A stretch of 64,000 bases of DNA from Candidatus Bathyarchaeota archaeon (GCA_963775895.1 CAVZKL010000011.1:1-64000); one strand, 5' to 3'. Shown: positions 1 to 63,269, counted from the first letter of the stretch. Made by a program: numbers and translations. The notes: a model not told the origin generated them from the sequence alone.

Positions 1-59
1 GACGCGCGCGCAATTCTTTTATTTGCTCAACATAAGAGAAGGAAAGGGAGAGCCTAGCA

Positions 60-1023
60 GTGCCACCTCGTCTGCCAGAGTCGAAGCATTTTCAGATTGA
101 AAGATTGGCGGATGGTGTCTATGCCGCAGTTGCTTCTGAGCAGGGATATGCAAGCTGTAATGCTGGTATCATCGACATTGGTGATAGAACCATTATCTTC
201 GACACGTTCCTCACTCCCGAAGCAGCCAGAGACCTTTTGAAGACCGCTGAACAACTAACCTCAAATAAGATCACACATGTTGTCAACAGTCACGAGCACA
301 ATGACCATATTCGCGGCAACCAAATCTTTGACTCGAATGTTGACATAATCAGTACTGCATTGACTCGTGAAGCAATTGCCCGAAACGAGCCTGAAAATAT
401 CAAATCAGAGAAAGAGACGATTCTCAAGGAAATCATCGATGCGCAATCAAGACTTGATGCTGAGAAGGATGCTAAACGACGGCGGGAACTTGCTTTATTG
501 ATTTCTTACATGCAGGGTGTCAGCAAATCACATTCCGAATTGAAAACAAGACTTCCAAACATCACTTTTGAACATAAGCTCACAATACACGGAACAAAGA
601 GAACAATAGAGCTTCTACCACTTGCTGGCCACACGTTCAGTGACGTTGTTCTTTACCTACCGAAAGAGAGAATTGCGTTTATGGGCGATTTGCTTTTTGT
701 CAACATACATCCTTACCTCGCAAGTGGTTCTCCTGAGAAATGGAAACAATCACTCGCCGAGGTCGAAAGGATTAGGAGCCAAGATTGCCGTTCCTGGTCA
801 TGGTCCTGTGGGTCGATCGGCAGACCTTTCGGTATTGTCTCAATATATTGAGTCACTTGAAAGCATCGTAGTGAACATGATAAAGTCTGGCAAACCTGTG
901 GAGCAAGCATCTTCTGAACCAATCCCCTCGCCATTCGACACTTGGCTGTGTTTGGAAAACTTTTTCGTCACAAATCTCAAGTTCCTTTACAAACTCGCTA
1001 CGCAAGGAAAAGAGACAATATAG
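60..1023 (+). CDS. MBL-fold metallo-hydrolase (one frameshift near 770)
   Basis: NSHEHNDH metal motif and GHT/GD motifs in ORF 60-851; C-terminal VPGHG motif continues in ORF 622-1023. Confidence 0.85.
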
Positions 1024-1164
1024 GTCACAGGGGGTTCTAGAAATAGCGTGCGTTCTCAGCGCTAATCGTATCGCGGTTTGGGTTTGGGGGTAAAGTATTA
1101 TACTGCGCCGTGACGAAGGGCGACAACGCTTTAGCCTTTGTGACTTAGAGAAAGGTAAAGGATA

Positions 1165-1359
1165 ATGTTCTCTCCTAAAATGAAGCTTCTCTTATCGATT
1201 ATTTTCATCATGGTAGTTGTGACCCTTGTTTTCGACTTGGCAGGTCTGTCATTTCCTCTTGGAGGCTACTCATTGTATATTGTTGTCTTCGTCATTGCAG
1301 TCTTGTTTTACGCTTTGCTTTCGAAATTGATGGACAAACTGAAAAAGAATCGCCTTTGA
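1165..1359 (+). CDS. Small two-TM membrane protein
   Basis: 64 aa, two hydrophobic helices, purine-rich leader. Confidence 0.6.
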   Translation: MFSPKMKLLLSIIFIMVVVTLVFDLAGLSFPLGGYSLYIVVFVIAVLFYALLSKLMDKLKKNRL

Positions 1360-1374
1360 TGTGCGCGTATTGGC

Positions 1375-1415
1375 TTTGCGTTATCGTCTGGAACGGGCGA
1401 GTGAGCCGAACGGCT
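1375..1415 (+). repeat. ~50-bp dispersed hairpin repeat, copy 1 (3' truncated)
   Basis: tttgcgttatcgtctggaacgggcgagtgagccgaacggct matches copies at 2286, 3270 and 6220. Confidence 0.9.
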
Positions 1416-1928
1416 TTTGTGGCTTTAACGTTTCTGGCCCTTGGCAGGAAGTTGCTGTCTCAACTGTTTCTTTTTCGCTTCTTTATCCCGTTCTTTCTTT
1501 TTCTGTTGTGCGATTTGAGTATTCTTTTGTTTACGTTTCATTACACTCGGCATAAATCTCAGCTACAAATTAACGATAGATAAGCAAGCTAAAACATATT
1601 TCTTTCGCATTAATGAAGGAAGCCAATAATATCCAAAACTGACGCGTCTTTCTTTCATTTCATTAAAGAAGCCAACTTTAAAAAGAGAAAAAAGAGTTTT
1701 GCAAAGCTCTTTCTTGGGGCTTAAGAAGTCTGTGTTTTGCTTTGCTTTTCCTTATGTTTTTTCCTTTTCTCGTCTCGCTCTTTCTTGGTTAACGGTTTGT
1801 CTTTTTTCGGCATTTATGTTCCCAGAAGGTATGATATGCGTAATAGTGCTTTAATAATTTTCCAATTTTAGAAGAGGCTCGACTTACAGGTTTTGGATCT
1901 TGGGTCTTCAAAACTTCGGCTTGATCAT

Positions 1929-1992
1929 GCGCGCGCTAGATCCATTTGATCGTGGGTTTTTTTTCTTCGGCCGGTCGAATAATGCGCGCTAG
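1929..1992. repeat. Two directly repeated GCGCGCTAG boxes (1929-1939, 1984-1992)
   Basis: Read directly from the sequence. Confidence 0.8.
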
Positions 1993-2114
1993 ACCTCAAT
2001 GACTGAATGACATCTAGGACAATTCCTAGGATTTCCTTCTGTCTTAAACTCCAGCCCACAGTTCTTACATCTGCAGTTCTTTGCTCTACCGTATTTTCTG
2101 TATCTTTCACTCAT
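1989..2114 (-). CDS. 41-aa zinc-ribbon microprotein (not in ORF track)
   Basis: MSERYRKYGRAKNCRCKNCGLEFKTEGNPRNCPRCHSVIEV*, CxxC...CxxC pattern, purine-rich leader; TAG stop lies inside a GCGCGC box. Confidence 0.7.
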   Translation of the reverse strand: MSERYRKYGRAKNCRCKNCGLEFKTEGNPRNCPRCHSVIEV

Positions 2115-2127
2115 TCTTTTTCCTTCT

Positions 2128-2138
2128 TAGCGCGCGCG
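2128..2138. repeat. TAGCGCGCGCG junction box
   Basis: Just upstream of the zinc-ribbon microgene. Confidence 0.75.
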
Positions 2139-2285
2139 TTGAATTAGGTGGTCAATAACGAATGCAAGTTCCTTGTTTTCTTCGGTTGCCATACCGAAAT
2201 ATCAAATTAGTTAATGCGATCTCTTTAACCTTTTTGAGAATTGTCTGGAGTTAGCGCTGACGTTATTTTGACGGTGTCGGCTCTT

Positions 2286-2333
2286 TTTGGCGTATCGTCT
2301 GGAACGTGCGAGCGAGCCGAACGGCTCACGAGT
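2286..2333 (+). repeat. ~50-bp dispersed hairpin repeat, copy 2
   Basis: tttggcgtatcgtctggaacgtgcgagcgagccgaacggctcacgagt. Confidence 0.9.
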
Positions 2334-2436
2334 TGATTAGCGCTTGGTAGTAAATGGAGATTGGTCTTTTAGTTGTAGGGAAAAATCTAATATAGAGATA
2401 ATTCTGATACGTATAAATAGACAAAGTGGAATCGCC

Positions 2437-3225
2437 TTGGCTTTTCCAACTTTGGATTCAGTTGCACGTAGTGTTATTTACCTCATAGTTGGCGTCGTTA
2501 TAGTTTATTTGTTGTCAAGAGCCTTGAAGCTTCGCCCGAAACCTATAACAATTGCGAAGCCGAGAAAAGAGGCTGCCGCCGCTTTGATTGTGAGCGTAGC
2601 CCTGCTTATTTTGGTGTTTGCGTGGCGAACGTTGACGAAAACATTCCAACTTCAGCCCCCAGAAAACACCGTTAGTATCACATTTGGTTTGTGGACCGCA
2701 TTCCTTTACGGTACGGGTTTTGCGGTCATAATCGTGGCTATGAAGATCACTCGACAAACTCTGGGAAGCATAGGCATAAGCAGAAAGGATACCGGAAAAA
2801 TGCTTTTTCTGGGGTTCGCATTAAGCGCAATATTGCTTGCCATTTATGGCTTGCTTACTACCTCTTTAGGAGGAGGTTTCGTAGGCTTTTCTCTTTTTTT
2901 GGCGTACGACCTAATTCTTGATATAATAGTGGGTTTCAGCGAGGAAACATTTTGGAGAGGCTACATTCAAACGAGGTTAATCGCTTATTGTGGCACAAAC
3001 AAAGGACTTGTAGTTACGTCGTTGCTTTTCGCTGTTCTTTGGCATTTTCCAATAGCCTATTACGTTGAAACATCGGGAGTTATGCTGGAGGCATTGGCAT
3101 GGACTCTATTGAGATTCCCAATTGGCTTGTTCCTCGGATACATTATGGTGAAAAGCCAAAACATAGTCCCATCCTCAATCGTCCATATCTTCATCAACTG
3201 GAACCTTGTTCTATGGCACCTTTAG
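2437..3225 (+). CDS. CPBP (CAAX/Abi) family intramembrane metalloprotease
   Basis: EETFWRG, FAVLWH and H..N motifs, multiple TM helices; likely TTG start at 2437; stop TAG is the start of the box TAGCGCGCGCG (3223-3233). Confidence 0.9.
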   Translation: MAFPTLDSVARSVIYLIVGVVIVYLLSRALKLRPKPITIAKPRKEAAAALIVSVALLILVFAWRTLTKTFQLQPPENTVSITFGLWTAFLYGTGFAVIIVAMKITRQTLGSIGISRKDTGKMLFLGFALSAILLAIYGLLTTSLGGGFVGFSLFLAYDLILDIIVGFSEETFWRGYIQTRLIAYCGTNKGLVVTSLLFAVLWHFPIAYYVETSGVMLEALAWTLLRFPIGLFLGYIMVKSQNIVPSSIVHIFINWNLVLWHL

Positions 3226-3269
3226 CGCGCGCGTTGGGAACATAATGAATATCTAGAGAGTATCGGTTT

Positions 3270-3319
3270 TTTGGCGTGTCGCCAGGAACGTGCGAGTGAG
3301 CCGAACGGCTCGCGAGCTA
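3270..3319 (+). repeat. ~50-bp dispersed hairpin repeat, copy 3
   Basis: tttggcgtgtcgccaggaacgtgcgagtgagccgaacggctcgcgagcta. Confidence 0.9.
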
Positions 3320-3327
3320 TCTGTTCT

Positions 3328-3534
3328 TCACATTCCAGTTCTGTACTTTATGGAATAGTACAGTTCAGCACCCCTTGGAATTGACTTTGGTATTTCTTCT
3401 TCAACAACATACATCGGCACTGGGTGTTCGGTTGGATTTTTTGGACATTCGTTGTGAATGTTGGTGACATTTTCATATCCGCACAAGGGGCACCTATGTT
3501 TGACGGTTTCAGACCACTTTGGATGTGCAGACAA
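3328..3534 (-). CDS. Small Cys/His-containing protein, possibly a 5' truncated remnant
   Basis: CPLCG...ECP..H motif; frame stays open upstream to ~3624 without a canonical start. Confidence 0.4.
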   Translation of the reverse strand: MSAHPKWSETVKHRCPLCGYENVTNIHNECPKNPTEHPVPMYVVEEEIPKSIPRGAELYYSIKYRTGM

Positions 3535-3797
3535 AGCCCCGATAATGTTAGCAGCTTTCTTCTGTTCTCTCGATGTACCTGTGTCCGTGTGCTGTAACGC
3601 CCATATTATTTCTTTTTTATTCAGTCACAGCACATCCTTGATTCAAATTTCCTTGTAAGTTTAATTTTCCAATCCTAAGTTAAGTTGAGAAGGTAGTTCC
3701 ATATAAATGATGATGCGTGGGCTTGGGGCAAAGTTCTGTCTCATGCATGAAGTCGGCGAGAAAGTGGTTTCTGAAGTGAGAAACAAAAAAAGAGGGG

Positions 3798-3863
3798 TTA
3801 TTTGCGTTTTTTGAAAAGTTGTACTCCTTCGATTGTTGTTTTGTATGTGAATCCGTGTTCTAG
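3798..3863 (-). pseudogene. Tyrosine recombinase C-terminal remnant
   Basis: Translates to LEHGFTYKTTIEGVQLFKKRK*, aligning with LIDNGWTYICTTPQNIMMFRKRK* of the integrase ending at 6769; same pyrimidine-rich trailer; cut at box TAGCACGCGCGCTA (3861-3874). Confidence 0.8.
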
Positions 3864-3916
3864 CACGCGCGCTATCTATTTCGAGGGCATACTAGGCACA
3901 AGACCGAGCTGTTGCA

Positions 3917-4318
3917 TCATGTTAGCATGTTATAATAATCAGTCTCTCGCCTGATCTTACCATTGTGAATTTCAATTATCGATGCGCCTTTAACCGAAAA
4001 GCGTTTTCCGGTCGCCGGTATCGCTGTCGCCGGTATCGCTGGATTGCTGCTATGGGCCTGAGTGCCCGTCATGATCCATTCCCAAGCTACCCAATTGCCA
4101 ATGTTAAACAGGGACTTCGATTCGAATCGCACATCAGGAACGTCAATAAGAGATGATTTGCAGAAGGCGACTAATTCCTTCTTGCCGTGGCAGACTACGC
4201 CCAGACCATTGTCCTCTAAAACACAATCATCTGTATAGAAGGAGATTATCTTATCCAAGTCGTGTGAATTCCATGCGGCAGCCCAATCTTTTATCACCTT
4301 TTCAATATCATTTGTCAT
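3917..4318 (-). CDS. SnoaL-like / NTF2-fold ester cyclase family protein
   Basis: AWNSHDLDKI..YTDD, WIMTGT and GKIRRETDYY pattern. Confidence 0.85.
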   Translation of the reverse strand: MTNDIEKVIKDWAAAWNSHDLDKIISFYTDDCVLEDNGLGVVCHGKKELVAFCKSSLIDVPDVRFESKSLFNIGNWVAWEWIMTGTQAHSSNPAIPATAIPATGKRFSVKGASIIEIHNGKIRRETDYYNMLT

Positions 4319-4396
4319 CTTTAGACCTCTGATCTATGCTTCTTTGAAGCGATTGTACTATATATATAACTTTCCTTCCAAATTCGTTCGCACGGA

Positions 4397-4497
4397 AGCG
4401 CGCGCTAGTTGTTGTTTTGAGTTTTGGTGGGTTGGAGCGCGAGCATGATGCGAGCGCGACAGGACGGTGAAGCATGATGCTGAAGAGCGCGCGCTAG
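4397..4497. repeat. Two identical AGCGCGCGCTAG boxes (4397-4408, 4486-4497) enclosing a short spacer with two AGCATGATGC copies
   Basis: Read directly from the sequence. Confidence 0.85.
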
Positions 4498-4584
4498 GTG
4501 ACAGAGAGCTGGGATTTTCAGCAAATCTTAAGCCAAGACTTGGGGAAGTAGACTATGTCTATTCAGAACGGAGAAGGACAATTA

Positions 4585-4758
4585 ATGATGATATTTTGGC
4601 TCATAGTTTTGGCCGTGGCACTCGTAGTCGTCGTGTCAATTATCGTGATAATAATATGGCTTGTGAGAAGGCGACGTCGCTCCGAAAAGAAGCGGGTACC
4701 GCCTCCACCTGCTCCAGAATCTGAGAAAGAGGGCATCTCTCGGGTGTCTGAGGCTTGA
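4585..4758 (+). CDS. Small single-TM protein with basic, Pro-rich tail
   Basis: Hydrophobic helix followed by RRRRR and PPPP. Confidence 0.55.
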   Translation: MMIFWLIVLAVALVVVVSIIVIIIWLVRRRRRSEKKRVPPPPAPESEKEGISRVSEA

Positions 4759-4949
4759 ATATGCTTGGCTTGATAATAGCGTTTGCAGGAATCGTAGTGG
4801 TGATAATTGCTGTGTACAGCCAGCTTCCAGAAATTAGAGTCGGTGTTCCGAACACATTTACTTGGGAGATGCGGAAAAGCGTCATGGTCGCTGGTGCAGG
4901 AGTGCTCATATTCCTCTTGGGAATCCTTATCGAAAGAGCAGGCATTTGA
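4755..4949 (+). CDS. Small two-TM membrane protein
   Basis: Overlaps the previous stop; two hydrophobic helices. Confidence 0.55.
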   Translation: MNMLGLIIAFAGIVVVIIAVYSQLPEIRVGVPNTFTWEMRKSVMVAGAGVLIFLLGILIERAGI

Positions 4950-5086
4950 GTCAGTATTAAAACTTGTTTCTTTGATGCTGTGCAGATTAAAGATTTCTCA
5001 TATTCTTTTTTCAGCTAGACTAGAGCCCTTTTTGTGTGGATTCCAAAGTTTTTAAAGGATGGTTATCAGATAGAAAGTTGACTAAT

Positions 5087-5368
5087 ATGCCGATAATTAT
5101 CAAGATTGGACCAGCTGTAATAAAACTTTTTTGGGCAATAGTTGCCTTATTAGGTGTCTTTTTAGCACAAACTGGATTTTCAGCGACCATTAGCGGCTTA
5201 ACAGATTTTGGTGAAATAACTTTAGCAAACGCTGCTGCTCTTTCGCACATAAGCGGTGGCATTCTTGTGTTTATTCTTGGGTTGGTTGTGGTGGCGGCAG
5301 GCTATCTCGGAATTCGCGGAAGAATAATAATCACTACAAACGAAGAAACAAAACAGAACCCTTCTTAG
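5087..5368 (+). CDS. Small two-TM membrane protein
   Basis: Hydrophobic ORF, followed by an AGCGCGCGCG box at 5413-5422. Confidence 0.55.
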   Translation: MPIIIKIGPAVIKLFWAIVALLGVFLAQTGFSATISGLTDFGEITLANAAALSHISGGILVFILGLVVVAAGYLGIRGRIIITTNEETKQNPS

Positions 5369-5501
5369 ATTACCGTAATGACTTTTTGAACCAGTTTTTG
5401 ATTTTGCGGAAAAGCGCGCGCGTGCGGATTTAAAATTTCTGTCTGGTTGTTAGTGCGTGCTGAAGCAATTGAGATGAGGACTTGAAAAGAAAAAAGGGGA
5501 G

Positions 5502-5534
5502 TTATTTGCATTTTCGGAATTGTTTTCCGCTGTC
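5502..5534 (-). pseudogene. Short, degenerate tyrosine recombinase C-terminal remnant
   Basis: DSGKQFRKCK*; DNA aaggggagttatttgcattttcggaa closely resembles agagggggttatttgcgttttcggaa at the integrase end. Confidence 0.55.
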
Positions 5535-5543
5535 TCAGCATCT

Positions 5544-6113
5544 CTATACTTTGATTATTTTCGAGGAAAATTTGACTGCTCTTAATGAATCTCTGGTCGG
5601 GGATAGATCTTCTGAGATCTTTGCGAGCTTCTCAAGTTGCTCCATGGTTGCGTCGCTCTTGATGTAATAGGTGGCTCGTAACTCTTGGTAGCCAGGTCTG
5701 ACCTTTCCAGGTTCTGGCAAGCCCATTGTGCCCTGCAGGTCTATGTCTCCTTCTATCTGTGTCACTAGCGAGTCTATCTTGATGCCCATCCCCGCGCCGT
5801 AGGATGCGAAGTTGTTGGTTATACAGTGGCTTAGCGCATCCAACAGTATCTCTGGTGGTAATGCGCCTTTATTCGTGCCCATCAGCTCTGGTGGATGATC
5901 GCTAGTAATTCCAAAAGGTTTGACTCTGCTATTCTTGTTGCCTCCCAACCAGAACTCGTCAATTGTTGACTCATTGTAAAAGGCGGTTTTCCACGTGGCT
6001 CTTGCCTGAAACTTGGCCCAAGCCGACTTCGGCTGCTTCATGACCGCTTCTCTCATTGCCTGAGCCTTTGACAAATCGACTCCGTTAATGGTTTTCGCTT
6101 TTTCGGTTTCCAT
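5544..6113 (-). CDS. OsmC family protein
   Basis: INGVD N-terminus, DHPPELMGTNKG..P.E.LL.ALSHC, EGDIDLQG..G, VRPGY; second Cys replaced (SPTRD). Confidence 0.85.
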   Translation of the reverse strand: METEKAKTINGVDLSKAQAMREAVMKQPKSAWAKFQARATWKTAFYNESTIDEFWLGGNKNSRVKPFGITSDHPPELMGTNKGALPPEILLDALSHCITNNFASYGAGMGIKIDSLVTQIEGDIDLQGTMGLPEPGKVRPGYQELRATYYIKSDATMEQLEKLAKISEDLSPTRDSLRAVKFSSKIIKV

Positions 6114-6219
6114 TGATGTGACCTCTTTGATTCTTCAGCTTGCGTTGGAGCTTATAGCATTTGTGACTTCGCCACTATCGTGCACTTTGAAAAGCTCAAG
6201 TCTATTTTGAGGATGTCAG

Positions 6220-6271
6220 TTTGGCGTAGTCGTCTGGAACGTGCGAGTGAGCCGAACGGCTCACGAGCTAT
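6220..6271 (+). repeat. ~50-bp dispersed hairpin repeat, copy 4
   Basis: tttggcgtagtcgtctggaacgtgcgagtgagccgaacggctcacgagctat; perfect GTGAGCCG-AA-CGGCTCAC hairpin. Confidence 0.9.
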
Positions 6272-6276
6272 AATGC

Positions 6277-6754
6277 GTGCTGAGCAACCGCGAAAGTCCA
6301 AACATTGAAATACGAAGTGAACGCTCAAGACAGAACGTGAAAGAAAAGTCTGAAGTTGTTCCGTGGATATTGATTATTGCATCTGTGATTGTCGCTCTTG
6401 TATTGGGTATTTCGCTTCTTTCCGAATCAGCTGAACCGAATTTAGCGATTGTATTCGGGTTCTTGGTGTCTGTCATAATTTGTTTTTCTGTAATTTCTTC
6501 GCTAGCCTTCAGAGGCGAAACAATACATAAGGTTCTTCTTCTAGTTTCATTGCTTCTTGAATCGGGTCGTTTTCTTATTGTGTCTTTTTTGGGGATTCGC
6601 GCTGGCAAGTTTAAGTCCAGCTTGGAGGGATAACCATCCTTCGGCTGTTTACAATATGTCTATAACCGTTGCTTGCCTGTTTGTTTTGGCTTCTATTCTG
6701 GCGGTTGCAGCGATTGGAGTTCTCGTCTCGATTCTAAGAGCTAGAGGAAAATAG
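6277..6754 (+). CDS. Multi-TM membrane protein (probably one gene frameshifted near 6590)
   Basis: Two overlapping hydrophobic ORFs, 6277-6633 and 6557-6754. Confidence 0.5.
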
Positions 6755-6768
6755 AAGAAAAGAGGGGG

Positions 6769-7683
6769 TTATTTGCGTTTTCGGAACATCATTATGTTCT
6801 GTGGGGTTGTGCAGATGTATGTCCATCCGTTGTCTATTAGTTCGCCTGCTTCTTTTTCGTCTTTGGCTATTGCGTGGTGGTAGTTTTGGCTTTCTTCGTC
6901 AAATTGAACGATATGAGTATAGACCATTGTTGAGTTAATGTTTCGGTGTCCAAGTCTTGCTTGAACTTCGATCAAGCTCTTGGTTTCGTTGTAAAGGCGT
7001 GTAGCATGATAGTGTCGTAAGGTGTGGAAGTGTATTTGTCTTCAGTCGTGGGTTGTTCAGTTTCTCCGCGAGGCGTTTCTTTTGATAGTTGAACATGGTT
7101 GCGAGTGAAGCCTAGGCGTGTGTTGCTAAATATGTAGTGGTTTCGTTTTGGTAACGTGTTGAGTCGTGCAAGTAATTTAGCTGAGATTCTCACTTCTCTT
7201 GGTTTACATCCTTTTTCAGGGTTGTTGCATTTCAGCGTGCTTTTTTCTTCGTCTATATCTGTCCATTTGCATTGCCATAGTTCGCCTATTCTGAATCCTG
7301 TTTCTTTGAGTGCTTGCAGTGCAATGGAGAACTTTTTTGCTTGTTCCGCTTATGAGTGCGTCTATTTCTTTTTCTGTTGGCACGAATGGAAGCGTTTCAT
7401 TCTTGGGATAGAGTGGTGGATGTCCATTGGATATCCTTCATTTTGGCGTATTCGTTGTAGGTGAAAACGGCTAGGTTTTGTGTCCATTTGACCATTTGTT
7501 GTTTCTTTTTATGTAGAGTTTTACAGTTTCAGGGTCTGCTAGGTTTACGTTTTCTCTAATCATGTGTCGTAGAATCTTGTATTTTGTTTGGATGGTTGCG
7601 TCTGCGAAGGCTTGTTTTTCGCAATGTATCATGAACTCTGCGAGGTCTGTGTTTGTGATAACGTCAGAGCAGGCGGGTTCCAT
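6769..7683 (-). pseudogene. Tyrosine recombinase/integrase (XerC/D-like), multiply frameshifted
   Basis: Across frames: ETGFRIGEL (catalytic R), PEKG (K), HTLRH (HxxR), LGHRNINSTMVYTH (H and catalytic Y); ATG at 7683. Confidence 0.9.
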
Positions 7684-7689
7684 TGAAAA

Positions 7690-8004
7690 GCTGGCGTGTT
7701 GGTCGTAACCCGCCTTTTGTTTTTTGTGGCATTCGGCTAATCGGGCTACCCGCGCTTCCGGTAGATTCTTCATCAGCGTCTGTTTGCCCTTTCCACTTGC
7801 AGGACGGCCGTTTCACCGTTTCGCACCAGGCATCCTCAACAACTTAACATGCATCATCGTCCTCTGCCAGGTGGACGTTTCGTTTCTGCTCCGTTGCCAG
7901 GGTTCTCACCCTGCGCCCTTACGAACGCTGCAATTCTACGCGTGGGCGGAGTTTCCTCAAACCCTCAAATTCAGGGCTCGGAAGCCACACACCAACTCGC
8001 CAGC
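7690..8004 (-). ncRNA. rnpB: RNase P RNA (archaeal)
   Basis: Minus strand shows P1 GCUGGCGAGUUGGU/ACCAACACGCCAGC, CR-I GAGGAAACUCCGCCC, CR-II GCAGAAACG, CR-III GUGAAACGG, CR-IV UAGCCGAAUG, CR-V AACAAAAGGCGGGUUA; ~315 nt. Confidence 0.95.
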
Positions 8005-8135
8005 CAAACATCAATGCACAGGCGTCCGCAATAAGAATTTTGGAAACTTCACTTGACGAAGCAGTTTTGATGAGGAAAATCTGTCGATCCAGCATGGCGC
8101 ACGCTTGGTGGTGAAGTCTTATCCAACCGACCTGA

Positions 8136-8309
8136 CTATGGCTTTTTGGCGAACTTGAGAGCTGTGCCGACGATCATTACAACGATTCCCACGAACAGAA
8201 GTACCATTCCAGGATTATTGCCTTCGTGCAGCTGCAAGGGTGCGGCCAAGATAGCACCGCACAATGTTAAAATAGCCCCAAAAAAGAACAGGACATCATA
8301 CTTGTCCAT
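8136..8309 (-). CDS. 57-aa two-TM membrane protein (not in ORF track)
   Basis: MDKYDVLFFFGAILTLCGAILAAP...VGIVVMIVGTALKFAKKP*; GAAGGTG SD-like leader. Confidence 0.6.
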   Translation of the reverse strand: MDKYDVLFFFGAILTLCGAILAAPLQLHEGNNPGMVLLFVGIVVMIVGTALKFAKKP

Positions 8310-8504
8310 GAACGCACCTTCACTCTATGTGACCAAAGGCAGTTAAAAATGTACTGTGGCTGGTTGGGGGAAAATTTTTGTCCCAAACACACAAGAATAC
8401 GCCTACGACTGCATTCCCTTCCCCTAACTTCCCCCTTTCTTTCTCTTTCTTTCCCATTACTGGAAAAACAAGGCAGGCACGCAGACAGACAAACAGACAC
8501 CCAA

Positions 8505-8514
8505 CGCGCGCGCG
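8505..8514. repeat. (CG)5 junction box
   Basis: CGCGCGCGCG between a low-complexity remnant (8420-8500) and the next gene. Confidence 0.7.
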
Positions 8515-8554
8515 AAATCTTTGAACACGGCCAACAGGGGGTTTTCAGCCTTCC

Positions 8555-9565
8555 TTATTCTTTCAGTTGTGAAGCCCCACAGTAAGGGCACTCTTCAGAG
8601 GCAATGGGAATTTCTCTGCGGCATTTGATGCACTCTTTGAGAAAACCTTTCGTTTCCGGGGCGAGGGATCTGCTTATGCGACCAAGTATCGGACCTAATC
8701 GAGCTTCAATTTTCGGCTTCACGGATCTTGCAGGTATGTAAGAGAGAGCTGCGGCAAAGACCCCGCAAAAGAGAATTGCCGTGCCATCTTCAAGTTGGGA
8801 AGAAACTTCCACGTCGTCAATATGAACTCCAGGGTAGAATGGAATTGTGACGTTTAAATCTCCATAATCTCCACTTTCAAGCTCCACTTCGAGAACCAGA
8901 TCAACGGCATATCCTCTGTCAAGGCGGTCACGCAATTCTGGATCGTCAGCGCCCCAAAAAATTGTGAAAGTGGAGTGTCTAAAGCTGATGTAAGACTCTG
9001 TTCCATTTTGTACGGTTGTTCCTCCGTCTTGATCGTAGATGGAACGGTAGTATTTGCCATTAGGCCAAAACTCAAGAGAGAACCAGACGGTTAGGTTTGC
9101 GTATATGCTTTTGTCAGTTTCAACATGAACTCCGTAGAGTTCATAATCCACCCAGGATGCGCCAATCGGGTAATTTACGTCCAAAAGATGCTGTTCCCAG
9201 CGTCCTCTATACCCAGTCTTCCCAGAAGTTATCCCATCATAATTTAAATTGATTGTGGCATCTGCAGGCGTAAAATAGGAGTAGTGATGAGCTCCTCCTG
9301 CTGGAACACTCGCAATTGAAAAGGCAACTCCAACGATTATGACTATGGTTATTGCTATGAGACCATAGAATATGCGCCTAGACCTCTTTAATGCTCCCTC
9401 AACGTTTGAATAGAGCATGAGTAGCGTCGCGAGACCAATGAAAAAGAGGGAAGAATACATTGCTAACAGAAAGAGTGGGCTATCTTTAGAAGCCACGTGT
9501 ACCCAGATGAAGAGTAAAACCAACAGAGGCGAAAGAATAAGGGTCCAGCCTACGCTTATCCCCAT
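8555..9565 (-). CDS. Membrane protein with extracellular domain and C-terminal zinc ribbon
   Basis: N-terminal TM helices, C-terminal CIKC...CPYCG. Confidence 0.75.
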   Translation of the reverse strand: MGISVGWTLILSPLLVLLFIWVHVASKDSPLFLLAMYSSLFFIGLATLLMLYSNVEGALKRSRRIFYGLIAITIVIIVGVAFSIASVPAGGAHHYSYFTPADATINLNYDGITSGKTGYRGRWEQHLLDVNYPIGASWVDYELYGVHVETDKSIYANLTVWFSLEFWPNGKYYRSIYDQDGGTTVQNGTESYISFRHSTFTIFWGADDPELRDRLDRGYAVDLVLEVELESGDYGDLNVTIPFYPGVHIDDVEVSSQLEDGTAILFCGVFAAALSYIPARSVKPKIEARLGPILGRISRSLAPETKGFLKECIKCRREIPIASEECPYCGASQLKE

Positions 9566-9734
9566 GAGGGCAACCCGCTATTAAAGTAGACAGCAAGTAG
9601 GATAATACCTTTTCTTCACCTATGGGAGAGTCTTGAAAGTCGACAGCAGAGAAAGGATGTTTCGTGGGAGATATCTTGATCTGACGCTGAGTTTAAATCA
9701 GAAAGCACCAAATAACGTACGGACTGAAACCTCG

Positions 9735-10322: not shown

Positions 10323-10326
10323 CCGG

Positions 10327-10699
10327 TTACCTCATCCGCAACGTGATCTGTTGCGTCGTGAGCAGCGTGATTTTTCTTCGGTTTGCATAAGATTTTGCAT
10401 GGTCACTGAACTTGTCCCCAACAATTATCGGACTCGCCAACCCCGACGTCGGAGGAGGCCTTGTCAATGTTGATAATGATGTTCACACCTATGGTTCTGT
10501 TCCAATCTCTGATCCAGACTCCCTGCGTCACGTGCCCCTTCTGCACTGTGAGGTCGAACTTCTGCGTGATCCCGCTAAAACCCTCGAAAGTCGTAGCATC
10601 CTGTTCAACACTAAACCCTTCCTTCTTGAAGTAACGGATCACCTGCGGAAGCATCCGCGACGGCTGCGGTCCAGCGGCACCTTCAATGCTCAACGTCAC
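10327..10699 (-). CDS. Mrr-like restriction endonuclease domain protein (frameshift near 10443)
   Basis: GFSG...FDL, IRDW.RTIGVN; corrected C-terminus PIIVGDKFSDHAKSYANRRKITLL. Confidence 0.65.
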
Positions 10700-10762
10700 C
10701 CTTCTCCTGCGCTAAACGTTATCTAGTGCGACGTGGAAAAGGTTTTCGATAGGCGAAGAAAA

Positions 10763-10972: not shown

Positions 10973-10980
10973 CTCACGCT

Positions 10981-16257: not shown

Positions 16258-16268
16258 GGCGCGCGCTA
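16258..16268. repeat. GGCGCGCGCTA junction box
   Basis: Between the core gene pelA and the accessory FAH pair. Confidence 0.7.
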
Positions 16269-16403
16269 CCTTGAGGCTCTGGAAGGCTCTTCAATGAGCT
16301 GTAATGGGCCGATGAAATCACGCGCTAAGAATTAATGAAAAGCGATAAATAATCCTGAAAGGAAGATTATGATATTCGCACACCGGGAAAAGTGAGAGGA
16401 AAT

Positions 16404-17434
16404 ATGAGACTTGTTCAATTTTTTCTGCCTAGAAATGGAAGACGGATTGGACAAATTGAAGGCAAGAACATCCTTGATCTGACAAGCATTAATGCTAAAT
16501 GGACCCACCTATATCATCTCTTCTTTGAGGGCCAATAGAAACAAGAAGACTATCGCAACATATCTTGATGGATTCCCACTACACAATAGCGTAACTTTGC
16601 CCTATGAGCAATTGCTCGAGACGACGGCCGGGGGACGAAAATGGGTGGATTCTGCCTCCGCTTGACCACCCCGATCCTGCTCACTGCATGATTTCGGGAA
16701 CTGGATTGACACATTTGGGCAGTATGGAGCAAAGAGTCAAGATGCATACACTTGCTAAAGAAAGTTCTAAGACCGACTCACAGAAAATGTTTGAAATGGG
16801 TCTTGCGAGAGGCAAGCCTGAGTTCGGATTGCGTGGCATTCAGCCGGAATGGTTCTACAAAGGAACTAGCGCTGTTTTACGGGGCCACAGAGACTTTCTA
16901 GATATTCCTGAATTCACGGAAGATGGGGGCGAAGAGCCGGAAATTGTCGGTTGTTATTTGATCGATGATGAAGGCAATCCTTGTCGTGTCGGCTTTGCCA
17001 TTGGCAACGAGTGGTCAGATCACCGTGTAGAGAAAATGAATTATCTTTGGCTGGCTTCGTCCAAACTACGGACTTGCTCAGTCGGACCAGAACTGATAAC
17101 TGATCAAAGTTTCAAAGACATACGGGGGAGATGCCGCATTCTCAGGAAGGAACAAGAGATGTATGACTCGGGTGAACTCCTGACAGGCGAGGACCATATG
17201 AGCCATAGTCTCGCTAACCTTGAGGATCACCATTTCAAATATCCTCAATTTCGCATCCCTGGTGACGTCCATTTGCACTTTTTCGGGACGATGCGATTGT
17301 CTTACCCAAACCGGCCTCGTTTTGAAACGGGCGACAGAATTGAAATCAGTTTTTTCAATATGGGTTGTTCGCTTGTTAACTATGTCCGTAGATTCGCTTT
17401 TTCCGAGATCGCTACCACCGTAAAACAGGGATGA
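16404..17434 (+). CDS. AraD1/GguC-type FAH family protein (frameshift near 16530)
   Basis: MRLVQF start, DHPDPAHC..SGTGLTHLGS, QPEWFYKG, DGGEEPEI, GNEWSDH, SKLR, PGDVHLHFFG. Confidence 0.85.
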
Positions 17435-17503
17435 TGTTTACCGAGCTATGACCTTACCAACCTGCCATGCTAGGTGCACGTGCCCAAGTCGCTGCGCGTC
17501 CGT

Positions 17504-18433
17504 TCAATAGGTCTCTAGTCTCCTCACTCGGTTTCTAAGAGTGCCTATCTTCTCAATTTCTATCTCAACGGTATCGTTTTCTTGAAGTGAAAAATCATCA
17601 GGCGGAACTATGCCTGTTCCTGTTAGACAAGTTGTTCCGACAGGCATCGGATTGTATCTACACAAGAAAGATCTTAGTTCTTCTATGCTTCTCTTCATTC
17701 GTGAAGTGTTGAAAGATTTGAGGAATATGCTTTCTCCTGCCCTAAAAACCTGACATTTGACTTCGAGTCTTGGTTCCAGACCCACTTCATCAATCGTAAC
17801 TATTGATGGGGCGAGCGCACAGCAGCCTTTGTAGATTTTGGCCTGTGGCAAGTAAAGAGGATTTTCCCCTTCTATGTCTCTCGCTGTAACGTCGTTCCCA
17901 GCCGTGAATCCTACTATGGCGTTGTCTGGTCCGAGAATGAACGCGAGTTCAGCTTCTGGGACACTCCACTTCGAATCGCCTCTCACGCATATTTCTTCAT
18001 CAGGGCCGACATAGCGGCTGGATGTCGCTTTGAAGAACACTTCTGGCCTCTTTGCGGCGTATGCTAAGTCATACACTCCTTTGACTCCCGTTTCAGTCTC
18101 TCTTGCCACACGGCTTTTCTCGTATGTTATGCCACAGCCCCAGACTTCAGGCGGATCCAGTGGCACGACAAATCTTACGCCGTTCGCATCCAATTTGTCA
18201 GAGCGTCCAATCTGGGTTCGAGGCAGTTTGGCGAGGTTGCCATGCAAGCATTCTGTTATGACATCTTTTAAACTGGTCTTCTTTCCAGAAGCAACAATCG
18301 CTAAATCGACAAAGGATCTGAAAGACACTCCGTCCAGACGAGTCAGATCAATTACTTTGTCCTCAATCCACAGCCCCATACGTAGGCCTTCACGTGACTC
18401 ATACCGGACTATCTTCATCTGAGGTCCCACCAA
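17504..18433 (-). CDS. FAH family protein, 2-keto-3-deoxy-pentonate dehydratase-like (XylX/KdaD)
   Basis: EVWGCGITY..SR.AR, RPEVFFK, PEAEL, GNDVTARDIEGENPLYLPQAK, TGTGIVPP. Confidence 0.88.
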   Translation of the reverse strand: MVGPQMKIVRYESREGLRMGLWIEDKVIDLTRLDGVSFRSFVDLAIVASGKKTSLKDVITECLHGNLAKLPRTQIGRSDKLDANGVRFVVPLDPPEVWGCGITYEKSRVARETETGVKGVYDLAYAAKRPEVFFKATSSRYVGPDEEICVRGDSKWSVPEAELAFILGPDNAIVGFTAGNDVTARDIEGENPLYLPQAKIYKGCCALAPSIVTIDEVGLEPRLEVKCQVFRAGESIFLKSFNTSRMKRSIEELRSFLCRYNPMPVGTTCLTGTGIVPPDDFSLQENDTVEIEIEKIGTLRNRVRRLETY

Positions 18434-18864
18434 CTCGGTAGCCTAGAGATATGTTGCTTCAAAGAATTTAGATTTTCGCAAGCTTTCTCATAAGACTCGG
18501 CAGCTCCAACCCAGTCATACTCCTTTTCCAATCGTTCAGCGCGCGGCGCCAATACTTCTTCCCATGTTTTCTGAAACCCTTCACTACCGAAACGTGAATA
18601 CAACCTCATAATAAGGTCTGTTTGTCTCGTTTTGACTTCACGTTGGCTTGGATATGACTTTGCGACCAAGAAGAGAAAAACCCTTTAGTTAGAAAGGAAC
18701 AATTGGCTGTTATGCCAAAAATTGATGCTTTTGATGGAGCCATCATGGATAGCCCGCCTATGGTAGTCTACAAGGCTAGTTTGAAGGAGGCAGCAGGGGT
18801 CACACATTGGTGGATGCCTCATTTTGAATCGAAGCTAAGAGGGGATATACCAATCGACCGCGAG

Positions 18865-18874
18865 GGCGCGCGCC
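18865..18874. repeat. GGCGCGCGCC junction box
   Basis: Just upstream of the probable AOR start. Confidence 0.65.
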
Positions 18875-21074: not shown

Positions 21075-21084
21075 TAGCGCGCGC
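21075..21084. repeat. TAGCGCGCGC junction box
   Basis: Between aor and polB. Confidence 0.75.
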
Positions 21085-46262: not shown

Positions 46263-47555
46263 TCAGCTTTGTTTGCATTCTCGTGCGTATGTTTCTGTTT
46301 CTCTGAGCAGTTTGTGGAGGTCCAATTTCGAATGGGCGGTGCACAAAGCGCAGCTATGGGTTGGAAAGAAGAAGATTCCGTTAGCGATCATTGCCAGATT
46401 ATAGTTGAACACTCTCTTGATATCCGCACGGGAAGCTGTTTGAGGGTCTTTTACGAGTTCTTTAGTGAAATGAATGTTGAAGAGTGAGCCTGCTCCAGTG
46501 ATCTGAACGTCAATTGCATTTTCATCGAAAATTCGTTTCATTTCTGCCCTTAAACTGTCGCCAAGCCCGTTAAGACGGCTTGTGACCTCACCGTCTTCCA
46601 GCAGTCGGAGAGTTGCCAGTCCAGCGGTCATAGTTATCGGGTTTCCCACGAACGTGCCACCTTGGAATGAGTAGTTGGGACGTTTGTAGACTGTGCTGTC
46701 CATTTTTTCCATGATTTTCTTAGAAGCGCACAGGGCTCCTATCGGAAATCCTCCTCCCAAGATTTTTCCAAGCACCGTTATGTCCGGCTTCACGCCGAAA
46801 TATTCCTGTCCTCCGCCTGGAGCGAGTCGAAACCCCGTTATCACCTCGTCAAATATCAGTAGAATATCCTTCCTGTCACAGAATTCTCTCAAGCCCTTCA
46901 GAAACTCTTTCTCCACCGATATTCCACCGCCTGCGCCCAACACTGGCTCGATTATAATAGAAGCCGGCTGCTCACTCTTCAACCTGTGCTCAACGCCGTC
47001 GAGATCATTGAAAGGCAGGAGAATCGTGTCTTGCAGGGCTCCCCGAGTCAGGCCTGCCGACTCCGGAACGTCAAACGGAGGTTTAACGCCCACGTGAAGT
47101 GCATCATAACCACCATGCCACCCTCCCAGAAACTTGGCTATCTTGTCTCGCGCCGTGAATGCGCGCGCGAGTCTCGTTGCGTACATGTTTGCTTCAGTCC
47201 CAGAGTTGGTGAATCTGACCATTTGGGCGCTTGGGACCATTTTCACGACTTGCTCAGCCAAAGCGACCTCTAGTTCATGTGAAGTTCCGTAAATAGTTCC
47301 GTTTTCAAGTTGTTTCTTCACGGCCGTTACAACCGGTCTGGGACTGTGTCCAAGAATGAGCGCGGTGTGTCCGAGCCAAAAATCGACGTATTCGTTTCCA
47401 TCCACGTCGTATAGTTTGCTTCCCTTGGCTCTGGCGGTAAAAAATGGGTATGGACCAAAATAGCGTACGCCATAGGAAACACCTGCAGGCAGAACATTCT
47501 TTGCCCGTTGATACAGAGTCCTGGAGGTTGGGGTCTTTGAAGTGTAGTCTTTCAT
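46263..47555 (-). CDS. Glutamate-1-semialdehyde aminomutase-like class III aminotransferase
   Basis: DVDGNEYVD, NSGTEA, DEVITGFR, GKILGGGFPIG, GTFVGNP. Confidence 0.88.
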   Translation of the reverse strand: MKDYTSKTPTSRTLYQRAKNVLPAGVSYGVRYFGPYPFFTARAKGSKLYDVDGNEYVDFWLGHTALILGHSPRPVVTAVKKQLENGTIYGTSHELEVALAEQVVKMVPSAQMVRFTNSGTEANMYATRLARAFTARDKIAKFLGGWHGGYDALHVGVKPPFDVPESAGLTRGALQDTILLPFNDLDGVEHRLKSEQPASIIIEPVLGAGGGISVEKEFLKGLREFCDRKDILLIFDEVITGFRLAPGGGQEYFGVKPDITVLGKILGGGFPIGALCASKKIMEKMDSTVYKRPNYSFQGGTFVGNPITMTAGLATLRLLEDGEVTSRLNGLGDSLRAEMKRIFDENAIDVQITGAGSLFNIHFTKELVKDPQTASRADIKRVFNYNLAMIANGIFFFPTHSCALCTAHSKLDLHKLLRETETYARECKQS

Positions 47556-53934: not shown

Positions 53935-54194
53935 AGCGGGGTAGTAATGATCAACGAATTGATAAACATTCTTTTGATCAGCGTGCTTTCGATCTGGGCT
54001 GGGAGCGGAGCAACTTTTAGGGTTTATTCGCTGAAAAAAAGCTTATTGTGTACCTCCCCTCCTCGGTTTCAATGTATCATGAATATTAGGATCCAAATAT
54101 GCACGCGTGCGGGGTCTTCGATTTGACATACTCATGTGGTTTGACGCGCGGAAGAGGGGCGTTAGGTGGTGCGAAAGCACGCAGTTGTTTATTT

Positions 54195-56213: not shown

Positions 56214-56223
56214 TAGCGCGCGC
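56214..56223. repeat. TAGCGCGCGC junction box
   Basis: Left boundary of the NTase/permease module. Confidence 0.75.
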
Positions 56224-61280: not shown

Positions 61281-61293
61281 GAGATAGTTATCC

Positions 61294-62199
61294 ATGGCTT
61301 GGATGTGTGACAAAGAAATCAAAAGAGAACTGCCTGAAGAATGGAACGATATAGTTCCGACCAATGTTTTCATCCAGGAATCCGAAAGACTAGTTGAACA
61401 TGCCAAGGAGAAAGGTATAACTTTAAGGGTCGTGGGCGGTCTAGGCATAGCGATAAAATGCAAAGACTTCAGGGATTTTGGGGCAAGGCTTGGAAGAGTG
61501 GGAACAGGCACCACGCAACAGGAATACAGTGACATAGACTTGGTTTCGTATAGGAAGCACAGAGATCAGGTCAAGTCCTTGTTTAATGAGATGGGATATG
61601 GAAAGCGAAGAGCGACACTCTCATCTGCAGCATCTGAAAGGCAAATCTACTACCATCCGAAAGGCTGGTTCTGCGTGGACGTTTTCTTTGATAAGCTGAT
61701 AGTTGCAAACCACCCAATAGACTTCGTTGGGCGCCTCGAGCTAGACTATCCGACGATTACAGCAACCGATGCTCTTCTTGAAAAAATTCAGATGTGGGAG
61801 GCCTTCAGCGCCAAGGACCTTAAGGATTGTCTGCTTCTGCTCAAGTCATGCCAAGTCAAAGAAGAAAAAGGCATCGACGTGAATTACGTTGCGAAACTGC
61901 TTTCTTCAGATTGGGGGTTCTGGTTCACCGCGACGAGTAACCTCAAGAAAATTCAGAGATTTGTCTCTGAACTGGAAAACTTTGGCGCTGAAGCGGGGAT
62001 AGATCCTGGAAAGATTTCGAGTGACGATAGAAAAGAGATCGGGGGTAAGGTTGAAGAGCTTTTGAAAGCAATTGAAGAAGAGCCGAAGTCTTTCGGGTGG
62101 AAAATGAGGGCTAAGGTAGGTACAAACAGGAGATGGTACAACCCTGTTGAAAGACCTGATACTGTTGGTGGCTTCGGAATTTGGGAAGCTATCAAATGA
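61294..62199 (+). CDS. Uncharacterised nucleotidyltransferase-fold protein
   Basis: RVVGGLGI, YSDIDL, VDVFFD, LLEKIQ, KDLKD, DWGFW.T...NL, PKS..WK.RAKVG. Confidence 0.75.
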   Translation: MAWMCDKEIKRELPEEWNDIVPTNVFIQESERLVEHAKEKGITLRVVGGLGIAIKCKDFRDFGARLGRVGTGTTQQEYSDIDLVSYRKHRDQVKSLFNEMGYGKRRATLSSAASERQIYYHPKGWFCVDVFFDKLIVANHPIDFVGRLELDYPTITATDALLEKIQMWEAFSAKDLKDCLLLLKSCQVKEEKGIDVNYVAKLLSSDWGFWFTATSNLKKIQRFVSELENFGAEAGIDPGKISSDDRKEIGGKVEELLKAIEEEPKSFGWKMRAKVGTNRRWYNPVERPDTVGGFGIWEAIK

Positions 62200-62203
62200 A
62201 ATC

Positions 62204-62213
62204 TGGCGCGCGC
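62204..62213. repeat. TGGCGCGCGC junction box
   Basis: 4 nt after the stop of the second NTase-fold gene. Confidence 0.7.
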
Positions 62214-62272
62214 AGTGTGGGAAAAGCACTTTAGCCAAATCAGACGAGAATAGTCGCTGGGAGTAGACTCCC

Positions 62273-63250
62273 TTGTTTGAAGATCCGCTAATCAACGTAC
62301 TAATCCTCATCGTTTCTTTGGTGGTTTTGGATCGGGCGAGCGACCTGACGATTACCAACGCCGTGAAGATTTCGGATGCAACAGGATATGGAAAGACAAA
62401 AATAGGGTTTGTCCTTGTTGCTTTTTGCTCATCCCTGCCTGCACTTTCCGTGTCGATCATTGCCTCTCTGACAGGAAGGCTCGACGTAGCCGTCGGGAAC
62501 GCTGTTGGGTCAGACCTAGCGAACATATCACTGATACTCGGTTTCTGCCTTATCCTGACGGCTCTCAGAAAGTTAGAAAAGACGCGACCTCTCAGTTTCA
62601 TGTCTCGGGAAGAGCTCCTGAGTTTGTATTTTGGTCTATTCGTGGGATCGGTTGTCCCTCTGACCCTCATCTACATGGGATTTGCAAACAGGCTCGTGGG
62701 TGTATTCTTGCTTGCAGTTTTCCTTGCCTACACTTACCAACTTCTCGCGCGGAAAAATGTTCGTGAAAAACAGCTTTCGGAAGCTGAACCTAAATCGGAC
62801 ACGCGCAAATCCACGTTTTTGGCGATCTTGAGCGGAATTTTCATAGTTGTGGCTGCTTATTTCATGGTTGACTCTGCCTCGGCCATAGCGGAATACGTGC
62901 ACATAAACCGAGTCATAATAGGCGGCACTATCGTGGCCTTTGGCACAAGCGTGTCAGTGTTGTTGGCAAGCGTCCGAGCTGTCCTGAGAGGACATCCTGA
63001 TGTATCGTTGGGAAACATTGTCGGAACGCTTTTCATGAACACGGCTCTCATTCTGGGCGTCTCGTTTGCAGTTTGGGAGTCAAACGCCGACATGACTGCC
63101 TACTCTAACCTTTTCATGTTCTCCGTCATAGCCAACATGTTCGTATGGTTCTTCTTGTCCCGTGAAAAGCTGGGCTGGAAGGAAGGAGTGGTTCTAGTCC
63201 TAATGTACGCTGTTTTCTTAGTAATGAGCTTTGGCGGCTACAGGCCCTGA
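62273..63250 (+). CDS. Sodium:calcium antiporter (YrbG/CaCA family)
   Basis: Two alpha repeats: SSLP...GNAVGS..AN and GTS...GNIVG...N. Confidence 0.88.
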   Translation: MFEDPLINVLILIVSLVVLDRASDLTITNAVKISDATGYGKTKIGFVLVAFCSSLPALSVSIIASLTGRLDVAVGNAVGSDLANISLILGFCLILTALRKLEKTRPLSFMSREELLSLYFGLFVGSVVPLTLIYMGFANRLVGVFLLAVFLAYTYQLLARKNVREKQLSEAEPKSDTRKSTFLAILSGIFIVVAAYFMVDSASAIAEYVHINRVIIGGTIVAFGTSVSVLLASVRAVLRGHPDVSLGNIVGTLFMNTALILGVSFAVWESNADMTAYSNLFMFSVIANMFVWFFLSREKLGWKEGVVLVLMYAVFLVMSFGGYRP

Positions 63251-63258
63251 AATGCGCT

Positions 63259-63269
63259 TAGCGCGCGCG
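63259..63269. repeat. TAGCGCGCGCG junction box
   Basis: 8 nt after the antiporter stop. Confidence 0.75.

Follow-up and report, generated by a model that had tools for sequence, protein, structure and literature searches.

Short sequences that recur throughout a genome, or that mark the point at which two DNA ends were rejoined, are known from several systems, and these bear comparison with the subject of this study, a run of alternating G and C bases (hereafter a box) found repeatedly in a 64,000-nucleotide stretch of DNA (the window, G000:C11:1-64000) belonging to a Bathyarchaeia genome bin of a soil archaeon (G000; 1.77 Mb in 28 contigs, 47.5% G+C, 88.8% complete). Copies of the highly iterated palindrome HIP1 (GCGATCGC) of cyanobacteria are spread through genes, in coding and non-coding DNA. 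Two papers describe HIP1 and the alternate HIPs as G+C-rich palindromic octamers that are many-fold over-represented, lineage-specific and unsettled in function (PMC4390886, PMC5861425), a description that fits the boxes as well, and in the first of these papers abundant HIPs are tied to cognate methylases (PMC4390886). A second likeness is to the filler of end-joining repair, exemplified by the N-nucleotides that TdT contributes to V(D)J joints, by the LigD POL domain and by archaeal PriSL, and consisting of short untemplated sequence at a joint combined with variable loss of its flanks. TdT favours G/C. Integron cassettes and their attC sites share with the boxes a repeated signal placed between single genes of variable arrays, and cassette-like units that turn up in differing contexts, while repetitive extragenic palindromes and their mosaic elements (REP/BIME) and miniature inverted-repeat transposable elements (MITEs) likewise occur in clusters between genes, mostly on their 3' side, and are restricted to certain lineages.

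Each of these likenesses has its limits. Unlike HIP1, boxes lie to 80% in the non-coding 16% of the genome and at the junctions of insertions and deletions (indels), are not positionally conserved, and occur without a cognate methyltransferase having been found. Known end-joining fillers are short and variable, whereas boxes are near-fixed, (GC)3.5–5, and with hundreds of copies constitute the top octamer of the genome. The 55–140-bp imperfect inverted repeat of integrons is missing, the genes between boxes point in both orientations, and boxes arise at deletions in formerly box-free DNA. In contrast to REP/BIME and MITEs, boxes share only 8–10 bp, have unique flanks, and possess neither a hairpin arm nor a terminal repeat. 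Full-text searching of the literature found, among the papers listed and judging by titles and opening lines of abstracts, no account of the GCGCGCGC motif in archaea, nor of an intergenic palindromic repeat of this kind in Bathyarchaeota. HIP1 and junction filler are its nearest known counterparts, and it differs from both.

The boxes stand at junctions where related genomes have lost or gained DNA, for three deletions the direction of change can be assigned, and boxes turn over rapidly. We tentatively read them as filler from end-joining repair of double-strand breaks, marking deletions, insertions and small patches, a reading based on sequence comparison to which we would grant slightly less than an even chance.

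Boxes at strain-level breakpoints

The G000 bin mixes two strains, since its contigs overlap at 90–98% identity (C2, C4, C5, C6, C12 and C13 versus C16, C10, C22, C23 and C25); C6:1-5509 and C22:62522-68030, for example, are twins at 97.5% identity. Comparisons were made between such contigs, between independent metagenome contigs (designated L), and with a set of relatives (G001–G009), the genus sample amounting to ten genomes.

Between C2 and C16, which are 90–93% identical, C16 is without 433 bp and carries at the junction a 7-nt box that is the sole non-homologous sequence there, a 151-aa gene (C2:5694-6149) having been reduced to its last 17 codons. Conversely, ~1.3 kb of C16 is missing from C2, where the junction is occupied by a 9-nt box and a 160-aa gene (C16:4311-4793) survives only as residues 123–160. 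Because full-length homologues of both truncated genes occur in several other species of the genus (G003, G004 and G007 for the former; G002, G003, G004, G005 and G008 for the latter), the box-bearing alleles are the derived ones. A third deletion, of 1.33 kb, distinguishes L136 from L135 (97% identical), again with a 7-nt box at the junction, and leaves the last 12 codons of a 350-aa NHL-repeat gene. In all three polarised deletions the undeleted allele is box-free at both ends. An earlier sequence-only reading of this stretch, in which boxes were the recombination or integration scars of a gene-acquisition system, had led to two expectations, that indel breakpoints should fall at boxes and that empty sites should keep one box. 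The first is borne out, strain-level breaks falling on boxes to the base; the second holds in so far as the deletion junctions of C2/C16 and L135/L136 can carry a box, but not for the undeleted alleles, which have none.

Gains and lesser replacements show the same association. In the L135/L136 pair, L136 has also gained an insert of 1.4 kb, which is accompanied by an 11-bp target duplication and has one of its ends at a box, and at two patches of 13 and 10 nt between C2 and C16 the shorter allele contains CGCGCGC or an imperfect box. Box 16259 (boxes in the window are named by their first base) stands where G001 has a patch of ~8 nt, the spacer being otherwise alignable, and a box of G001 lies within an 11-nt insertion relative to G008.

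Metagenomes provided a further view of these breakpoints, through Logan contigs from four runs of four studies, placed on positions 1–20000 of the window at a likeness of at least 90%. A joint 16262->18876, found in contigs of all four runs, passes over 2613 bases and has 18 other letters in their place, starting inside the left box of a two-gene segment (the FAH module, see below) and ending 3 nt beyond the right one. Further joints connect 1936->2284 and 1936->4401 (both in X2), 2309->4397, 1939->4416 and 4484->6769, and contigs have loose ends at 1936 (X3), 4396, 4397, 4402 and 5414, as well as at short box variants near 1983 and 3863. Among those listed, a box is no more than 5 nt away from 4 of 15 joints and from 5 of 24 loose ends, while boxes with these 5 nt occupy ~1% of the 20 kb. 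In G000 itself, 27 of 422 end-points of intergenic repeats fall no more than 6 nt from a box (6.3 expected). Of the 56 contig ends of the assembly, six lie within 40 nt of a box, compared with ~0.3 expected genome-wide or ~1.7 if all ends were intergenic; coinciding as they do with contig ends and strain-variable junctions, boxes are relevant to assembly and binning.

A ~45-bp repeat with a perfect 7-bp stem and a 4-nt loop, present in four copies in the first 6.3 kb of the window (1375-1415, 2284-2332, 3268-3316 and 6220-6271) and also in C23, is the end-point of several metagenome joints.

Abundance, form and setting of the boxes

Counted as maximal runs of at least 8 bases, exactly 15 boxes are found in the window (Table 1), every one of which contains GCGCGCGC, where a first-order Markov model predicts 0.72 copies of GCGCGCGC and 0.72 of CGCGCGCG (~1.4 in total). 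All 15 run positions given by the sequence-only reading are thereby confirmed to the coordinate, together with its estimate that about one run should be expected and its box-free core from 21.1 to 47 kb, there being no run between 21084 and 47161. Its shorter variants fared less uniformly: GCGCGC is present at 1984 and CGCGCG near 3866 and 18541, but only a weak 5–6-nt run near 16322. Over the whole genome GCGCGCGC is the top octamer, with 254 sites versus ~21 expected. By the gene calls of our own crude caller (84% of the genome coding, 16% non-coding), the 263 runs comprise 201 intergenic ones, 9 that touch a gene edge and 53 in coding DNA, so that the 210 runs in or touching non-coding DNA make up ~80%. 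Splitting the Markov count by coding status, as had been suggested, yields 202 non-coding sites of GCGCGCGC versus 2.9 expected (69-fold) and a 3-fold excess in coding DNA, where neighbouring words are at ~1-fold. Box density varies ~8-fold within the genus, the single-contig genome G001 having 464 sites, and a survey of box counts in 201 genomes of the order found box richness to be patchy over many genera. These many box-rich genera rule out a genus-specific trait.

A box is a bare palindrome of 7–10 bp and not part of a REP, MITE or attC-like structure, since its flanks are unique, its dyad symmetry does not extend outward and no T-tract follows it. Flanking bias is limited to the first base outside the run (A before, T after, ~47%), and among 178 even-length boxes the two flanks are no more complementary than background once the first flanking base is passed. 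The largest similarity cluster among 521 half-site flanks has three members, every cluster consisting of duplicated loci, and no Rfam match was found at the boxes. REP-, MITE- and attC-like structures were rejected for want of symmetry and shared flanks, and the footprint of a TA-inserting transposon was rejected as well, TA adjoining 104 of 522 half-sites and standing on both sides of only 13 of 261 boxes. Archaeal intrinsic terminators have an oligo-T tract at the 3' end. Downstream of stop codons (103 boxes) T is not enriched above ~0.4 at any position to +60, and an intrinsic terminator was discarded on the ground that no T-tract was found.

In relation to genes, boxes are densest in convergent gaps (1.32 per kb), followed by tandem (0.71) and divergent ones (0.44). 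Within tandem gaps (n=114 boxes) they stay near the upstream gene: when the gaps are divided into fifths, the one that follows the stop codon contains 41 boxes and the final one 8. Of 1918 genes, 78 have a box in the interval from -3 to +30 relative to the stop codon, and at nine boxes genome-wide the final G of a TAG stop is also the first base of the box. Boxes are clustered (variance/mean = 3.5 in 20-kb bins), forming islands in which they separate nearly every gene and genes lie in both orientations, as in 12 boxes at G000:C10:42-50 kb and 13 boxes in a 14-kb stretch of G001 that is missing from G000 and G008. Genes beside box-bearing gaps have slightly lower G+C.

Boxes prefer variable DNA. 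In the window 9 of 32 gaps without conserved gene adjacency hold a box, as against 1 of 18 with conserved adjacency, and the corresponding values in regions of G001, G009 and G008, a small and non-random sample picked for synteny with the window, are 35 of 125 and 1 of 29. The FAH module is not at this site in G001, G003, G005, G008 and G009, and no DNA match of its genes was found in five relatives; 56.2–63.3 kb, also between boxes, likewise has no DNA match in five relatives. In G000, C7:32365-32625 and C10:42206-42466 are 98.9% identical, with boxes at their ends. Between species at ~75% identity, spacers are too diverged for box placement.

By our reading 14 of the 15 boxes in the window are non-coding, and, as had been noted by eye, 47161 alone is inside a gene. 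Boxes do bracket, positionally, the Zn-ribbon microgene (1984/2130), SnoaL (3866/4398), the FAH pair (16259/18866), aor (18866/21077) and the Na/Ca exchanger (62206/63261). The label of accessory gene given to aor does not stand, however, as in G001, G003, G005, G008 and G009 it is syntenic between an eRF1-family gene and PolB, without boxes. Boxes also flank genus-conserved genes, as box 21077 does the aor/PolB pair, and there 80 of 80 related loci were found box-free at the orthologous place. Counterparts of boxes 16259, 18866 and 21077 were not found in G001, G008 and G009. In G006 (L102 = G006:C28, 2650-3100) the PolB promoter and gene directly follow the eRF1-family gene and aor is missing, so that aor too is variable within the genus.

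Possible origins of the boxes

A box that is the sole new sequence at a loss junction or gain border resembles end-joining filler, and it is on this resemblance that the reading we tentatively favour is built. A double-strand break would be rejoined without a template, its ends would be resected to a variable extent, bridged by a self-complementary (GC)n filler and then ligated, the synthesis of the filler at the broken ends being the step that we infer. As resection varies, patches, deletions and insert borders come under one mechanism: slight resection would swap a small patch for a box, long resection would produce a deletion with a single box at its junction, and where foreign DNA was captured, one border of the insert or both would bear a box. 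Selection would purge scars from genes and promoters, leaving boxes to accumulate in dispensable spacers, past stop codons and in variable islands. The 3' bias is then explained by tolerance of stop-proximal scars and intolerance of promoter scars, and the same selection on scars would account for why boxes cluster in dispensable islands, are not conserved in position and differ 8-fold in density within the genus. Where the sequence-only reading saw recombination or integration scars, their place at junctions of variable DNA is upheld, but what they appear to record is breakage of any kind, including deletion, rather than gene acquisition in itself. If boxes are repair scars, they offer a sequence-level marker of breakage and rejoining in the genome of an uncultured archaeon, by which dispensable DNA, the entry points of foreign genes and the rate of events would be readable from metagenomes alone, and they would point to a fixed-filler end-joining chemistry unseen in studied systems, in a phylum without genetic tools.

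As to the enzymes, a doubtful elaboration is that some Bathyarchaeia lineages use a type of end joining, undescribed so far, that may be called GC-tailing, in which a polymerase or primase would add alternating G/C to both 3' ends, the tails would anneal and the joint would be sealed. Each repaired break would then leave a (GC)4 stamp, past deletions, insertions and rearrangements would be legible in the genome itself, and box-rich islands would represent repeated breakage and gene capture. The genome encodes a complete operon of Ku, LigD Prim-Pol, ATP-ligase and phosphoesterase (G000:C22:27397-30452, minus strand). Complete operons of this type are rare in archaea; the ligase of the Ku operon is split over two overlapping open reading frames (ORFs) in L159 (6022-6792 and 5397-6245), and Prim-Pol is split in G001 and G005. 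A first sample had Ku in 7 of 10 genus genomes versus 1 of 20 others, and it is present in 45 of the 201 genomes of the order. In that survey Ku proved neither necessary nor sufficient for box richness, and Ku/LigD was rejected as the cause. The replicative primase, present in all archaea, is a candidate enzyme, as a lead only. Archaeal replicative primase has been credited with microhomology break joining and terminal-transferase activity (PMC12019639), and terminal-transferase activity in end joining has similarly been ascribed to the LigD POL domain (PMC8656161).

Several observations weigh against the repair-scar model. We know of no enzyme that adds alternating G/C, and the Ku survey showed no link to box richness, at least 100 sites (counts uncorrected for G+C) being reached by 4 of the 45 genomes with Ku and by 17 of the 156 without it. 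The empty FAH site of related strains consists of half a box and the 18 other letters. Some indels are box-free, namely one of 330 bp between C5 and C10 and one of 9.3 kb between L120 and L137 that has a 9-nt microhomology, and in a 15-kb island of G001 the nearest box is ~75–90 nt inside the edge and not at it. Some boxes differ from their relatives by clustered substitutions (L121 vs L123; G001 830708 vs G008) or by one CG unit, a 2-nt length change (L118 vs L116), indicating that substitution and slippage also make and unmake boxes. Truncated paralogue fragments adjoin 2 of 213 intergenic boxes, versus 15 of 639 controls matched for position and 9 of 600 placed at random, and thus show no enrichment. 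This test is of low sensitivity, since it works only where the genome also contains a paralogue and it failed to pick up either of the C2/C16 deletions; we give its result little weight against the model, to which it lends no support.

Substitution and slippage lead directly to the first alternative, that boxes are a by-product of mutation or repair bias, such as a HIP1-like mismatch repair, biased conversion or dinucleotide slippage, unlinked to breaks. In its favour are the point-change and CG-unit differences just mentioned, among which box 47161 also belongs, the excess of GCGCGCGC that reaches 69-fold in non-coding DNA and persists at 3-fold in coding DNA, and a density that follows the order of constraint, convergent over tandem over divergent. 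We nevertheless regard it as improbable, because it leaves unexplained both the base-exact breakpoints and the three deletion junctions at which nothing but a box is new. The word statistics are also unlike those of its candidate mechanisms. Transition neighbours of GCGCGCGC are enriched 7–8-fold and not depleted; boxes of length 8 (155) outnumber those of length 7 (118), and as a maximal run GCGCGCGC is found 126 times and CGCGCGCG 29 times, where simple slippage should decay. A Vsr-type mechanism would need a 5-methylcytosine methylase, and none was detected: PF00145 was not found in G000 (88.8% complete), in single-contig G001 or in eight of the ten genus genomes, and PF01555 gave in G000 only one weak match, of a kind that other genera have too. 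A HIP1/Vsr-type origin was rejected on these two counts, the absence of PF00145 and the enriched transition neighbours. The suggestion that boxes are a methylase or restriction target was likewise abandoned, a cognate cytosine methylase not having been found.

Less probable again is the model of the sequence-only reading itself, in which a dedicated recombinase or nuclease would recognise boxes, or cross over at them, and so excise and insert box-bounded cassettes, in the manner of integron attC sites or of cutting and ligating at a rare restriction site. Its appeal is clear from the FAH module, boxed at both ends, from the gene-box-gene pattern of islands and from mobile box-to-box units, including the 98.9% identical, box-ended pair on C7 and C10 and a 155-bp Zn-ribbon module (see below) that is 98–99% identical where the genes of the species are at ~75%, and a palindrome would permit insertion in either orientation. 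Were it correct, a box would be the smallest known cassette boundary. Against it stands the polarity of the three deletions, whose box-free undeleted alleles indicate that the event produced the box instead of making use of it. Box length is variable, from 7 to 10 nt, and nothing symmetric or conserved extends past 8–10 bp; the comparison with attC sites accordingly fails, there being no symmetry past one flanking base, no shared flanks and no integron-type integrase. The sole integrase signal of the window is a 68-aa Phage_integrase fragment (6769-6975, E 0.0027, 17.9 bits vs a cut-off of 27.1), and beyond this weak fragment IntI was not found beside boxes in the scan of the window, box-rich islands elsewhere lying outside that scan. 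A self-protecting restriction system is unsupported in the same way as the restriction target above. Least probable is that boxes punctuate transcription units or chromatin, being selected behind each independently transcribed gene as a 3'-end signal, an insulator or a site for protein binding (perhaps via Z-DNA), for although they concentrate past stop codons, in convergent gaps and near the upstream gene of tandem ones, and conserved operon-like blocks are box-free inside, only ~4% of genes are boxed, no T-tract or shared context follows the box, an 8-nt palindrome alone is unable to fold as a hairpin, orthologous gene ends lack boxes (0 of 80 at aor/PolB, and none in three relatives for 16259, 18866 and 21077), and boxes at deletion junctions inside former genes are left unexplained.

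Boxes and other elements of the window

Table 1. Boxes and associated elements in the window
Feature	Coordinates	Strand	Setting	Comparison
Box CGCGCGCGC	3..11		2 nt from contig start	
Non-coding element, ~500 nt	1414..1911		Bordered by box 1929	95% identical in G001, G002, G005, G009
Box	1929..1936		Overlaps a spurious ORF only	Homology breakpoint in metagenome contigs
Box-to-box Zn-ribbon module	1984..2138	-	Short box GCGCGC, 41-aa Zn-ribbon microgene, box 2130-2138	
Box	3225..3233		TAG stop of the CAAX-protease gene 2344-3225 ends on the first G of the box	
Two boxes, 4398-4405 and 4487-4494	4398..4494		Flank an 81-bp segment	Segment repeated in relatives
Box	5414..5422		Separates a convergent pair of small genes	X3: loose end at 5414
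Box	8505..8514		41 nt past the stop of gene 8555-9565 (-)	
Box	16259..16266		Left border of FAH module	
FAH module, 2.6 kb	16267..18865		276-aa ORF without assigned function and FAA-hydrolase gene (Pfam)	Lineage-specific
Box	18866..18873		Right border of FAH module	Relatives' homology restarts 2-3 nt beyond
Box	21077..21084		13 nt past aor stop	Conserved aor/PolB spacer
Box, sole one inside a gene	47161..47169		Encodes Ala-Arg-Ala in a class-III aminotransferase	
Box	56216..56223		Left border of a 7-kb stretch	Stretch without DNA match in five relatives
Box	62206..62213		6 nt past the stop of gene 61294-62199, before the Na/Ca exchanger gene	
Box	63261..63269		10 nt past Na/Ca exchanger stop	Right border of lineage-specific stretch

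Box 18866 falls within a long ORF (18703-21063), but upstream of the start of homology and of the AFOR_N domain. Compared with its orthologues, the sequence of box 47161 differs by point substitutions only.

The Zn-ribbon module has three copies in the genome, with homology from the short box onward (window 1984-2138; G000:C22:60026-60305; G000:C10:42581-42843). Its G005 copy is 98% identical over 1983-2137 and its G002 copy 99% over 1989-2128. The TAG stop of the microgene adjoins the short box, and box 2130-2138 is 15 nt upstream of the ATG (frame read by eye). The 41-aa product is a CxxC...CxxC zinc ribbon, and the 98–99% identity of the microgene to the G002 and G005 copies is far over the genome-wide identity.

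Boxes also adjoin the counterparts of the non-coding element 1414-1911 in G001, G008 and G009, and an Rfam search with the element returned no match. Its 95% identity is seen in species whose genes are 70–80% identical. In X2 its metagenome depth reaches 8222 and 6148, versus ~20–120 for the neighbouring genes, piling up like the RNase P RNA gene. On its minus strand two short lysine-rich ORFs can be made out by eye.

The window encodes the archaeal RNase P RNA and a 5S rRNA. The weak tyrosine integrase fragment described above, a C-terminal one, and the RNase P RNA gene (7694-8000, minus strand) are ~500 nt apart. Beyond the fragment comes the first 8 kb of the window, variable and rich in boxes, and the region may once have been a hotspot of integration. 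A ~85-bp repeat (window 54019-54126) is present in ~30 copies of 91–100% identity on most contigs, with no box association. Within the FAH module, a conserved element of ~59 nt (18482-18540) has matches of 80–93% at unrelated places in G001, G002, G008 and G009. The TATA-binding protein gene (14269-14835) has several paralogues at ~68% DNA identity, both here and in each relative.

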